From contig OY776328.1 in NCBI GenBank assembly GCA_963675515.1, positions 840,001-872,000 on the forward strand: a stretch of DNA of 32,000 bases. The letters run 5' to 3'. Numbering within the stretch: the stretch's first letter is position 1; each line of letters opens with the position of its first letter. The position numbers and the translations under genes are program-made. The stretch is from Coprobacillaceae bacterium. Its GTDB lineage: Bacteria > Bacillota_I > Bacilli_A > Erysipelotrichales > Coprobacillaceae. The notes under the pieces are model-generated. The model was not told where the DNA came from and made no database searches. It saw only the letters and a list, made by a program, of their open reading frames with translations. This document shows, one piece after another, positions 18,880 to 22,951 of this stretch.

Positions 18880-19784
18880 TCAGTCCTCAAAAAGACTGGC
18901 ACCGTTTGTTGCAATCACTTCTTTGTACCAGTTGAATGATTTCTTTTTCATCCGTTTGTAGGTACCATTGCCATAATCGTCGACATCGACATAGATGAAA
19001 CCATAGCGTTTCGACATCTGGTTGGTTGAGTTGGAGATCAGATCGATCGGTCCCCATGAAGTGTAACCCATCAGATCGACACCATCTTCAACAATGGCTT
19101 TGTACATTTCCTGGCAGTGGGCCTTGAGGTAGTCGATGCGGTAATCGTCATTGATCGATCCGTCAGCTTCAACTGTGTCTTTGGCTCCCAGACCGTTTTC
19201 CACGATGAACAGTGGTTTGTGGTAACGGTCATACAGGTCAACCAGAGAGATTCTAAGACCAATCGGGTCGATCTGCCAACCCCAGTCATTGGCTTTAAGG
19301 TATGGGTTCTTGACCGCCATGATGGTGTTTCCAGCCGCAACATCGAGATCATCGGTTTTGGCTGCGGCACATGAAGATGAATAGTAGCTAAATGAGATGA
19401 AGTCAACCGGATAGTCTTTCATTATGCGAAGGTCTTCTTCGGTCATTTCCAGGTTGATGCCGCTGTTTTTGAATCGTGACAGAAGATATGAAGGATATTC
19501 CCCGAACACTTGGGTATCCGAGAAGGCATACAGTTCCCTCATTCTTTGTTGGGCCTCAAGGACATCTTCTGGCTTGCAGGTATATGGATAGAATGTCGCT
19601 TTTGTCAGCATGCATCCTACTTTTGAATCCGGGATGTTGTCATGGCAGATCTTGGTTGCCAAAGCGCTGGCCACAAACTGGTGGTGCATGGCCTGGAATT
19701 TGACTTCCTCGAACTTTTCCGGAGTGAATCTTGACTCAATCAGACCTCCGGTCATGAAAGGATGGCGGGTGATCGAATCCACCT
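18880..19784 (-). CDS. 6-phospho-beta-glucosidase (GH1), exon 2 of an intron-split gene
   Basis: The frame resumes as AG GTG GAT TCG, giving (E)[15 protein letters not shown]...HHQFVASA...FIVENGLGA...[17 protein letters not shown]. This is collinear with the paralog at 29989-31398. It includes the nucleophile ENG motif and the S..K.Y phosphate-binding signature. Confidence 0.85.
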
Positions 19785-19833
19785 ATAGCGATAGGTAAGA
19801 CTTTGATGTTATCTCCATCTTTTCCCCCGCTCC

Positions 19834-19867
19834 ACACCGTGCATGCGACTTTCACCGCACACGGCGT
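19834..19867 (-). ncRNA. Group II intron domain V
   Basis: The minus-strand sequence is ACGCCGUGUGCGGU-GAAA-GUCGC-AU-GCACGGUGU. This is a 34-nt hairpin with a GAAA tetraloop and a 2-nt bulge. It is position-for-position comparable with the canonical GAGCCGUAUGCGAUGAAAGUCGCACGUACGGUUC. Confidence 0.75.
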
Positions 19868-19883
19868 TCCATCTAATTCTTCT

Positions 19884-21678
19884 TTAATTTATTTCAGTTA
19901 AATTACATCTCTTACGCAACATGTTCAGTTTTTTAAGCTGTGTTTTGTTTAGATTGAACTTTTTCAATAGCGTTTTTTCAGTTTCCTGATTATTACCGTG
20001 TATTAGTTTATGTACTTCTTTGTGAATAATGATTAGATTGTCAAAATTATCGGTTCCACCATCTCCAACGGAAACAATGTGATGACAGTGTATTTCCTCG
20101 GCCGTTAGAAACAACTGGGTGATTCCACAACGCCCTTTTTGCATTGAATACTTTGAGATTGTGTTATCCCGATATTCCACACTTCCGTTTCCAATTGGCA
20201 GTTCCAGCAACCTCTTCATAACTGAGGTTACATTATTTTCTAATCGTTTATAAACTAATTTGCGCCCCTCTTGGGTATAGTTGCATATGTTTTGATTGAA
20301 GTTTGTCTTCAATTTCCACTGCGTATCCGCCAGTGGAAACAATGAAATGGCTCCAATCGTGAATGTGCGATAGTTATTCTTAAATAACTTCTTATACAAC
20401 GGTGGGGGACTCCTGGGTACTTCATATTTAGCTATTGGTTTCAATCGGTTGTACAAGGTCTTGAGCGTCTGATGGTAAACATTTCTAAAATCTATATTTA
20501 CATGTGTTGCAGCTTCATAATAATTTCTTATCCCCAGTATATATGAATTATAATTGTGGATATTCTTGGAAATTGTATGACGCTGTATCTCGATAACTCT
20601 TTTCCTTATTTCCGCTTTGATTTTTATTTTACTTTTCGCCGATACAAAGGTATTCGCAACGTACTTCTTGCGCTTTGGTACCAGCTTCATTTCAAACCCC
20701 AAATAGTCCGACCTACGTTTCCTTAGATTGGTAATCTTTGACTTTTCAGGTGAAACATTAAGTTTAAGTTCATTCTTCAGATATTCCTTGACCGCATGAT
20801 ATATCCTTACCGCATTTTTATAACTGCAAGTGAAGACTCGTGCGTCATCGGCATACCTTACCGCATACATTTCTTTTAGATTGGTTTTCTTGAGTACTCT
20901 ATACTTATATGGACATTTATAATCAGCATTGAATGTTTCCCATTGATTGCTTATCCACCAGTCCAGATCGTTCAACACTACGTTTGAAAGTAATGGCGAA
21001 AGCACTCCTGCCCTGTGGTGTCCCACAGTGTGGGACACCTACTCCTTTGATGGGAGCTTTCAGCATTCTACTTATAATCGTCAGTACCTGATTATCCTTG
21101 ATGCCGATATTCCAAAGTTGTTTGATTAACTTGGTATGATTGACATTGTCAAAGAACGATTCGATATCCAAATCAACAACATAGTGATTGTGCGTCATAT
21201 TGGCGATATGGCAACATCTTGACAAAGCATTATGGGTTGAGCGATTGGCTCTAAATCCATATGAATGCTTATGAAACTTCGCTTCGCAGATTGGTTCAAG
21301 TATCTGTTTGAACATCTGTTGAATCAGTCTGTCATGCATCGTTGGTATTCCCAATGGTCGTAATTTTCCATTAGGTTTAGGTATTTCTACTCTTCTTACC
21401 GTTTTTGGTTTATAGTCCAATAGCGATAGTCTAATATCCTGAATAAATTTCTCAACGTTTTCTATCTTGTAATCATCAATAGTAAGGCCGTCAGTGCCTT
21501 TTGTGTGACTTCCGGTGTTGCTTTTGATGTTTCGATAGGCGAGGAGTATATTGTTCCTGGATATCACCAGATTATAAAGATCTATCCCGTAAGTATCATT
21601 GTTTAAACTCATTTGATACAACCAGTCAAAAGTTTCCTGCATACTGTAATATTCGTTGTTTCGTAATCCCGTGCTCAC
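19884..21678 (-). pseudogene. Intron-encoded protein (RT domains 0-7, X/maturase, D/HNH endonuclease) disrupted by a 1-nt frameshift near 21009
   Basis: ORF 21678-20923 ends with ...KAPIKGVGVPHCGTPQG followed by out-of-frame residues. ORF 21038-19884 carries GVLSPLLSNVVLNDLD...YADD...CHHIV..GGTDNFDNLIIIHKEVHKLIH. The GTPQG and GVLSPLL blocks are separated by a single extra base. The start is GTG 21678 or ATG 21642. Confidence 0.75.
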
Positions 21679-22374
21679 CGATGGATTATTCCTTTCGTTT
21701 AGAACAATTGTTTCCCATCATCTTATCAGACCCTGTGAGCTTCATTTAACTGTAACTGATTTTTAAAGAACCAGACTTGGGGCTATCCCTCCACCATTTT
21801 TCGTGGCTTCATCGGTACTGTGCCCCTACTTTCACGAGAATAAAAACACTTCGTTTACACTTATAGTTACCGTCCCGATAACAGTCGTTTAATAGACGTT
21901 TCTCGCTTACAACGTTCCAAATATTCTAGCTTTACATTTATCCTTAGGTTCCTGCTATGAGCCTGATGAATTATACCCTCATTGTCGAGTATCTCGAATT
22001 TCATATCAACGATTCTTACTTTTCGATATTCATCGTTGCGCACGCAACATGCCACCTTTCAATAGCACGACTTTCTAGACCCGTACATTCGCAGTTTCGT
22101 CAGTCCTTACACGGACATTCTCACCATAGATAATTTATAGCGTCCCGGCCTATCCTTTACCATATGATATATCACTTAGGTATTGTTCAGCCGACTTCAC
22201 CTAGCTTCACACATAATTTTACTGTTATAACCTCATGCGTGTAGGAGTATCAGACTACTTGTTTCAGGCTAACATGACAGCCATCATTCCAAGTATTGAA
22301 TATTCAGTTGTGATTTTCCTATTGGAAAATCCTCCCATTTCATGCCTAGGCACTTATAGGGAAACGTTTCGCAC

Positions 22375-22951
22375 CGTTGAAAGTCAGCCAGTATTTTACC
22401 TTGTCCTTGTATCGTTTGGTAATCACATCGGTATATCGTGCAAAGAAATCGATTGATTTGCGGCTGTACCATCCATCATAATCCTGGCAGAAAGCCAAAG
22501 GTGGATCATAATGGGACATGGTAACCAATGGTTCAATGCCGTATTTCAGACATTCATCAAAGACAGCATCATAGAATTGCAGACCTTCTTCGTTTGGTTC
22601 AAGTTCGTCACCGCGTGGGAAGATCCGTGACCAGGCAATCGACAATCTGAATGTCTTGAATCCCATCTGGGCAAACAGCGCTATATCCTCTTTGAAATGG
22701 TGGTAGAAATCGATTCCGTGGCGTTTAGGATAGTATACTTCATCATCGGTGGCCATAGCTGTATTGATCATCTCATCGGTAATGTCGCAGTTGCCGTGGA
22801 CATCAAGCAGTTCAGCCAAGCTTTTTGGGTCCTTGAATAATGCTACATCGGATGCTGATGGCCCTTTGCCTCCGGCCTTCCAAGCCCCTTCAAACTGGTT
22901 GGCTGCAGTTGCCCCGCCCCATAAAAATCCTTCTGGAAAAGTTTTCTTCAT
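22375..22951 (-). CDS. 6-phospho-beta-glucosidase (GH1), exon 1 of an intron-split gene
   Basis: The sequence runs [24 protein letters not shown]...[15 protein letters not shown]...KVKYWLTFN plus the first base of the Glu codon. The track ORF's tail GAKRFPISA is read-through into the intron. Confidence 0.85.

Follow-up and report, generated by a model that had tools for sequence, protein, structure and literature searches.

A group II intron in the acid/base glutamate codon of a GH1 gene and the conserved frame change in its encoded protein

Described systems and the present locus

Bacterial group II introns are rare in conserved and housekeeping genes (PMC4424553, PMC2504315), with exceptions such as recA of Geobacillus (Chee & Takami 2005, as cited in PMC2504315) and some cyanobacterial genes. 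We analysed a 32,000-nucleotide stretch of DNA from a Coprobacillaceae bacterium (contig OY776328.1, positions 840,001 to 872,000; hereafter the window), in which a group II intron interrupts a glycoside hydrolase family 1 (GH1) gene of the 6-phospho-beta-glucosidase type. An earlier sequence-only reading had proposed a sense group II intron inside the codon for the acid/base Glu of this gene and had called such a position uncommon for a conserved metabolic enzyme. The proposal was borne out by covariance models, intron-encoded protein (IEP) homology, exon collinearity, and pairing between exon-binding sites (EBS) and intron-binding sites (IBS), and the rarity matches the literature (PMC4424553, PMC2504315). 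The window insertion is no isolated oddity, being one copy of a multi-copy lineage that is also found in a second GH1 motif and in IS66 transposases.

The TeI3/TeI4 introns of Thermosynechococcus elongatus (PMC2882425) resemble the present lineage in several respects. They form multi-copy families (six in T. elongatus) with differing EBS1/EBS2 and matching IBS, they use insertion elements and an occasional gene as sites, and their good EBS-IBS matches are read as retrohoming. They differ in being CL/IIB introns of a thermophilic cyanobacterium, mostly intergenic, with many copies that lack an open reading frame (ORF) and are served by intact IEPs in trans, whereas all known copies here retain the two halves of a frameshifted IEP, both of them under selection, and favour conserved codons of one paralogous enzyme family as targets.

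The recA intron of Geobacillus kaustophilus is likewise an intron with a reverse transcriptase (RT) ORF in a conserved protein gene whose function requires splicing, but it has another host gene, belongs to another intron lineage and occupies a single site. For the recA intron, neither a frameshifted IEP nor a targeting of paralogs across a family is known to us. The endonuclease-encoding Firmicute introns of Bacillus cereus-group plasmids and the Clostridium perfringens IepA share the domain order RT, X, D, HNH with the window IEP; unlike it, their IEPs are single ORFs.

Homing endonuclease genes, group I introns and inteins follow a comparable strategy, in which conserved active-site DNA serves as the site, provides many near-identical targets and makes precise removal obligatory. 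Conserved coding motifs would offer a group II intron the same supply of targets at the price of obligatory precise splicing. The mobility mechanism is different, as the window intron would move by RNA-guided reverse splicing and target-primed reverse transcription and would be removed at the RNA level by its own ribozyme. No group II intron in a GH1 gene was reported in the open-access literature searched. Taken alone, the GH1 insertion is one more example of a known phenomenon, that of introns in conserved genes. Two features are outside the variant forms of a 2015 review (PMC4424553). The IEP reading frame is split in a conserved manner while under purifying selection, and a hairpin specific to the lineage lies at the split; and the lineage systematically targets Glu codons that are conserved across a paralog family.

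The interrupted GH1 gene and the intron RNA

All coordinates are window positions on the minus strand unless stated otherwise. GH1 exon 1 was located at 22375..22951 (577 nt) by translation, PF00232 and alignment. It codes for residues 1-192, contributes the G that opens the Glu193 codon, ends in ...TTCAACG, and is preceded by the sequence GAAAGAGGGAAC (22966-22955), which resembles a ribosome-binding site. Exon 2 occupied 18880..19784 (905 nt). It starts with AGGTGGATTCG, supplying bases 2-3 of the Glu193 codon, continues as VDSITRHPF..., and carries the nucleophile motif IVENG before the stop codon. A stem followed by a T-run lies beyond it at ~18797-18760. A promoter and terminator scan of the intron/GH1 locus gave nothing above shuffled expectation.

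In-silico joining of the exons produced AAC GAG GTG (N-E-V) at the junction and a 1482-nt ORF of 493 codons plus stop, while moving either intron boundary by 1 base led to a stop codon or a broken GH1 frame. The sequence-only reading had run exon 1 from 22951 to 22375, begun the insert at 22374 and resumed GH1 at 19784 as AG GTG GAT TCG. These positions were correct to the base, as were its sum of 577 + 905 = 1482 nt and the intact 493-codon frame that it expected after excision.

The following family scores hold for the spliced sequence only. The spliced protein matched Pfam PF00232 over residues 2-487 with 428 bits and passed NCBIfam NF007158 (6-phospho-beta-glucosidase) with 659.9 bits at a cutoff of 639. 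Among solved 6-phospho-beta-glucosidases it matched PDB 6WGD (E 4e-175) and E. coli BglA 2XHY (E 1.9e-169). Aligned to the GH1 paralog in the window (29989-31398) and to intact homologs, it showed zero gap at the junction, in agreement with the collinearity claimed earlier. E193 (WLTFNE) and E388 (IVENG) were invariant in this alignment. From established GH1 knowledge we take E193 to be the acid/base and E388 the nucleophile. Neither exon carried a lesion.

All 80 related GH1 loci from GTDB genomes were uninterrupted, and so were the best relatives in the protein database, which reached 85% identity. The closest intact GH1 was L027 in the GTDB genome scan (79%, a partial match) and P0162 in the protein database (85%); by organism, the best GH1 matches were RUG14176 (79%) and Kandleria (75-76%). 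Together with the IEP match to Faecalitalea (70%), these make an Erysipelotrichales host probable. The search for an intron-less orthologous allele, proposed with the sequence-only reading, recovered none in the GTDB genome scan or the protein database, and the context of P0162 was non-syntenic. As a side observation, an insertion of ~20-25 residues at 22840-22730 (GH1 residues ~38-75) was shared by this GH1 with its closest relatives P0162, P0267 and the Kandleria protein P0205, and was missing from the in-window paralog and from the solved 6WGD.

The intron itself covered 19785..22374 (2590 nt, GTGCGAAAC...CCTATCGCTAT) in sense orientation with respect to the GH1 gene. The consensus ends named earlier, 5' GUGYG and 3' ...CGCUAU, were read as GUGCG at 22374-22370 and CGCUAU ending at 19785. 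The Rfam covariance models, a check suggested at that time, gave two matches above the gathering threshold. The domain I core at 22134..22312 matched RF02004 (group-II-D1D4-5) over the full model 1-201 with 109.8 bits (gathering 34.5, E 2.5e-23), and the same family matched 10 related loci. Domains V/VI at 19785..19869 matched RF00029 over the full model 1-77 with 61.6 bits (gathering 40). The RF00029 alignment put domain V at 19834..19867 as a 34-nt helix with a GAAA loop, exactly where the sequence-only reading had it, and the structure line gave domain VI with the 3' end at 19785..19831, the last bases being AU. From this model we infer a bulged branch-point A at 19792, 8 bases from the intron 3' end.

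The catalytic-triad position of domain V (19866-19864) reads CGC, where AGC is more usual. A CGC triad is best known from IIC introns. The window intron is not IIC-like, because EBS2 and an endonuclease (En) domain are present.

The guide pairings were identified from the sequence and from covariation across copies. IBS2-IBS1 (GACTT-TCAACG, 22375..22385) forms the last 11 nt of exon 1. EBS2 AAAGUC (22069..22074) pairs through AAGUC 5/5 with IBS2 GACUU, and EBS1 CGUUGA (22006..22011) pairs 6/6 with IBS1 UCAACG. With these boundaries, domains and pairings, we regard the identity of the insert as a group II intron as virtually certain.

The locus is best explained by retrohoming of a full-length, En-encoding intron, which would have inserted in sense between bases 1 and 2 of the Glu193 codon (TFN-E). 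The intron would then splice from the GH1 mRNA and restore the enzyme, so that GH1 output would depend on splicing. Splicing of the GH1 mRNA appears the most likely outcome, given intact ribozyme parts and a perfect match of EBS1/EBS2 to the exon. Judged from these features, the intron is probably splicing-competent.

The frame change in the intron-encoded protein

The sequence-only reading had described one RT/maturase/HNH ORF in the insert. Its domain content was recovered; the single ORF was not, a frameshift at 21009 having been overlooked. The IEP region consists of two overlapping ORFs in different frames, 21678..20923 (251 aa) and 21038..19884 (384 aa). The N-half (21010..21642, frame 0, PF00078) starts at ATG 21642 or GTG 21678, runs through ...GTPQG with RT blocks 0-4, and meets the frame-0 stop at 20923. 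An extra A at 21009 (CAG GGC A GGA) puts the remainder of the IEP in the +1 frame. The C-half (19884..21008, PF00078 and PF01844) reads GVLSPLL... and contains RT5-7, X/thumb, D and HNH up to the stop at 19886-19884; YADD at 20855-20844 and the HNH endonuclease at ~20132-20007 are both intact. The frame thus changes within RT block 5, where CCA CAG GGC A GGA GTG CTT gives GTPQG, the extra A, and GVLSPLL.

As encoded, this is not the single ORF expected of a group II IEP. Deleting A21009 in silico yielded a 585-aa protein that matched TIGR04416 with 345 bits (cutoff 300) along with PF00078 and PF01844. Relatives with ~70% identity read CAA GGC GGA ATA (QGGI) in a single frame, so the lesion is a 1-nt insertion. 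The closest named IEPs, compared over the full length, were C. perfringens IepA (68%) and those of Bacillus mycoides / B. thuringiensis plasmids (58-59%), and Faecalitalea matched at 70%. Comparison with solved IEPs was uninformative for the intron class, as IIC, CL and ML were equally distant (E 1e-39 to 1e-50). The intron probably belongs to bacterial class B, judging by the Firmicute host, the presence of En and the 58-59% identity to B. cereus-group plasmid IEPs; class B introns are confined to Firmicutes (PMC4424553).

We retrieved the DNA of six further copies (L166, L168, L169, L170 and L171 full or nearly full, L167 truncated), and the identical inserted A was present in all six. The source-genome copies P0013, P0122 and P0124 are known as proteins only. 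The frameshifted copies came from three contigs of one long-read metagenome assembly and from three independent Logan short-read assemblies, representing at least 4 independent samples. In a search of 5.8 billion protein clusters, full-length IEPs reached 72% identity at most. The matches at 90% identity or more were all C-terminal fragments, in a cluster of 14 members of which several are apparently from the source genome, and 14/14 fragments were consistent with the frameshift. A metagenome scan with the IEP returned only relatives at up to 71% identity.

These data bear on the possibility that the inserted A is a sequencing or assembly error and that the IEP is truly a single ORF. The copy L171 (484-3083), located in a different GH1 gene, suggests that such errors may occur in this material: it carries five extra single-base insertions in the IEP region with 0 substitutions compared with L166, a pattern typical of long reads, and these insertions are probably long-read assembly errors rather than decay. 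The A at 21009 is another matter, as it recurs in the window, the long-read and three short-read assemblies in copies that differ at 5% of other positions, the shift site is not a homopolymer, and the protein database holds at least 14 fragments and zero full-length forms. We consider an error at this position hardly credible.

Selection was then compared between the two frames. Pairwise ratios of nonsynonymous to synonymous substitution (dN/dS) were 0.05-0.13 for the N-half and 0.09-0.16 for the C-half, each in its own frame, with dS between lineages of 0.08-0.31. In the wrong frame both halves gave dN/dS >1. Zero stops occurred in the halves across copies, and the sole other clean indel was 3 nt and in-frame. 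The frame under selection changes exactly at GGC|A|GGA: in L168, CAG->CAA is synonymous in frame 0, and the nearby downstream changes CTT->CTA and TCA->TCC are synonymous in frame +1. Each lineage also has private substitutions within 25 nt of the inserted A, which disfavours a recent spread of the frameshift by gene conversion. By these comparisons, the frameshift was already present in the ancestor of a mobile lineage that has since diverged. The purifying selection suggests that both halves are translated and functional.

The same values weigh on a reading in which the element is defective, with a dead IEP, copies mobilised in trans, and a GH1 gene that is effectively a pseudogene. The IEP ORF is formally disrupted, most bacterial intron copies are truncated or inactivated (PMC4424553), and trans-mobilisation of RT-less introns is documented in T. 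elongatus (PMC2882425). The host genome has at least two further GH1 paralogs (29989-31398 in the window, and P0267), so loss of the interrupted gene could be tolerated, and the truncated L167 adjoins a GH1 pseudogene. A dead ORF should, however, drift toward dN/dS of ~1 and collect stops and indels, and we observed 0.05-0.16 over a dS of ~0.25 with no stops. YADD and HNH are intact, the GH1 exons are lesion-free, and the lineage-private substitutions near the A speak against the copies having acquired it recently by gene conversion. A defective element is therefore improbable in our view.

A perfect 10-bp hairpin was found at 21017..21039 (GGUGUCCCAC-ACU-GUGGGACACC), ending 1 nt 5' of CAG and 4 nt before GGC. 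When GGC occupies the P site and AGG the A site, CAG would be in the E site. The 26-nt hairpin segment had a minimum free energy of -17.9 kcal/mol, compared with a mean of -4.9 and a best value of -13.6 in 63 frameshift-free relatives, which makes it the strongest of 64. Compared with close relatives, one U-A pair of the stem has become C-G through a change in each arm, and one mismatch has been repaired. No extended synonymous-site conservation was detected around the shift site beyond the hairpin and GGCAGGA. On 70S as well as 80S ribosomes, +1 frameshifting, the AGG-mediated kind included, is stimulated by stable upstream hairpins that lie beside the E site (PMC6321510).

We propose that the IEP, on which efficient splicing and mobility rely, would be produced by +1 ribosomal frameshifting at GGC-AGG-A, aided by the stable hairpin abutting the E-site codon, and that frameshifting would hold IEP levels low. 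The predicted trans-frame peptide would read ...CGTPQG-G(V/I)LSPLLSNVVLNDLDWWISNQWETFNADYK and the frame-0 termination product ...GTPQGRSAFAITFK. Systems with programmed +1 frameshifting (E. coli prfB; hairpin-AGG, PMC6321510; IS transposases) share with this site a conserved +1 frame change within an essential mobile-element gene, a stable duplex immediately 5' of the E-site codon, and AGG in the 0-frame A site. The present site differs in that it has no stop or demonstrably slow codon, its P-site re-pairing is poor, and the duplex is an mRNA hairpin instead of a Shine-Dalgarno duplex. No programmed frameshifting in a group II IEP was reported in the open-access literature searched. A pause at a 'hungry AGG codon' was also considered and is unsupported, as AGG is no rare codon in this host. 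We give about even odds to frameshifting as the way in which the IEP is expressed.

The two ORFs could instead yield a split IEP, its halves (RT 0-4, and RT5-7 with X, D and En) made separately and assembling into an RT/maturase, the second half starting from an internal GTG at 21038 or five codons on. The +1-frame ORF does open at a GTG right after its own stop with AAAGGAG upstream in all copies, gene callers divide the region of every copy into two proteins (251 aa and 364-384 aa), and the purifying selection that both halves show is explained equally well. The distance from the Shine-Dalgarno-like sequence, however, is 3 nt to GTG 21038 and ~15 nt to the second GTG, both poor spacings; the division would cut the conserved palm motif RT5 (GTPQG|GILSPLL), and the strongest hairpin of 64 at exactly this place would be left unexplained. 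No natural split group II RT was found in the literature searched. To our knowledge there is no example of one. We judge a split protein unlikely, if less so than the defective element described above.

Sister copies, retargeting and neighbouring features

L166, L168, L169, L170 and L171 were 94-95% identical to the window copy over the whole intron. L166, L169 and L171 lie in three different GH1 genes at the site ...CGCTAyAAAG|AAGAyAT, which is the Glu codon of a conserved (Y/F)(H/N)RYK-E-DIALMAEMGF motif. L168 (4605) and L170 (31) interrupt IS66 transposases (PF03050) at different motifs, ...SDGYQAYD| and ...HCD-E-TTTQIL. The five sister copies thus occupy three target types besides TFNE, and the window insertion is the only TFNE-site copy among those readable. 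No synteny was found between the window and the loci of the other copies.

EBS1 and EBS2 differ by target type, each matching its own exon. The EBS1/IBS1 and EBS2/IBS2 pairs at the other targets were CUUUGU/ACAAAG with AGUGG/CCGCU, UGUCGU/AUGACA with AUGCU/GGCAU, and CGUCGC/GCGACG with AGUGGA/UCCACU. In the four copies with a readable 3' exon (window, L166, L170, L171) the first 3'-exon base was A in every case, and the junction split a Glu codon as G|AR. For L168 the exon finishes in ...GACA, with the 3' exon falling outside the contig.

Third positions of the target codons (TTY and AAY in TFNE; TAY and AAR in YKE) are opposed by G and U residues in EBS1, so synonymous target variants still pair. 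This placement could be selected or could be chance. Among GH1 genes of 80 genomes, with G.U pairs allowed, 13 of 102 TFNE sites paired fully with the window EBS1 and EBS2, and 66/90 RYKED sites paired fully with the EBS of the RYKED variant. The GH1 paralog in the window has an empty TFNE site at 30478..30519 on the plus strand (TTGACTTTCAATG|AAATC), which is EBS1/EBS2-compatible with one G.U pair. Its RYKED site, compatible with the sister variant, is also empty.

The frameshift-free relatives of ~70% identity occupy SpaA repeats, which have a prealbumin fold, in large surface proteins; their site is the Glu codon of Y-x-x-x-E-x-x-AP-x-(G/N/H)-Y, split at G|AA. They include L086-L090, with an intact ORF, for example L087 at 3271-5863 and L089 at 3271-5867. 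This suggests that coding motifs which are both conserved and repeated are a speciality of the wider clade. Accounts of bacterial group II introns usually place them in intergenic or mobile DNA, where splicing is of little import to the host; the present lineage and its SpaA-repeat relatives do the opposite.

Two further copies differ in structure. L167 (4582-7061) is 99.9% identical to the window intron but is missing 85 nt at its start and 25 nt at its end. The GH1 fragment fused to it begins around residue 155, contains an intact TFNE and then runs into a premature stop. L167 is probably another locus of the source genome, its IEP fragment being equal to P0013. Both of its junctions share a GGAGA(T)ATGATG-like microhomology. 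P0124 (156 aa) starts with the translation of domain V (MCGESRMHGVERGK) and directly continues as the IEP C-terminus (LKTNFNQKIC...), which points to a rearranged or nested copy of the intron at another place in the genome.

Taken as a whole, the proposed account is of a functional and recently mobile intron from a young, multi-copy lineage of gut or rumen Firmicutes, which would retarget by changes of EBS1/EBS2, with GH1 restored by splicing and the IEP made via +1 frameshifting. Several observations weigh against it. AGG accounts for 19.5% of Arg codons in the window genes, with 8 uses in the IEP, and re-pairing of the P-site Gly tRNA from GGC to GCA is poor in the +1 frame. Part of the hairpin potential stems from the G-V/I-P...G-T-P coding sequence, and the stem is invariant among copies, so that the lineage offers no covariation for it. 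Retrohoming by itself produces perfect EBS-IBS pairing, which alone is no proof of selection for splicing. The insertion may be young, the compatible TFNE site in the paralog 7.5 kb away is unoccupied, and the truncated L167 abutting a GH1 pseudogene illustrates that such insertions can end in decay. With splicing in vivo, the recoding mechanism and current mobility all argued from sequence, we hold the account as a whole to be evenly poised.

A more demanding combination joins three parts: hairpin-assisted +1 recoding of the IEP, which would be the first in group II introns as far as we found; homing into Glu codons of the best-conserved paralog-family motifs, the GH1 catalytic acid/base among them; and an EBS1 tolerant of synonymous variation. 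We put this forward tentatively, with somewhat less confidence than the account above. If it is true, sugar-utilisation enzymes would come to depend, conditionally, on a splicing factor that frameshifting limits.

The greater surprise of the locus is its conserved frameshift, as a formally broken gene is under strong purifying selection while the element has reached at least 4 target types. If programmed frameshifting operates, group II introns would join those mobile elements in which recoding restrains production of the mobility protein, and the site would be a natural bacterial example of an upstream-hairpin +1 stimulator. Annotation pipelines call such loci as two GH1 fragments and two RT fragments. 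They would consequently miss a potentially functional enzyme and a functional retroelement.

Elsewhere in the window, at 9433-12650 on the plus strand, an amine-oxidase/phytoene-desaturase-like flavoprotein, a family-2 glycosyltransferase and a CrtO-type glycosyl-diaponeurosporenoate acyltransferase (PF18927) are adjacent. By gene content the trio looks like the tail pathway of a glycosylated C30 carotenoid of the staphyloxanthin type, which, provided that the host is correctly assigned, would be out of the ordinary in a gut anaerobe.

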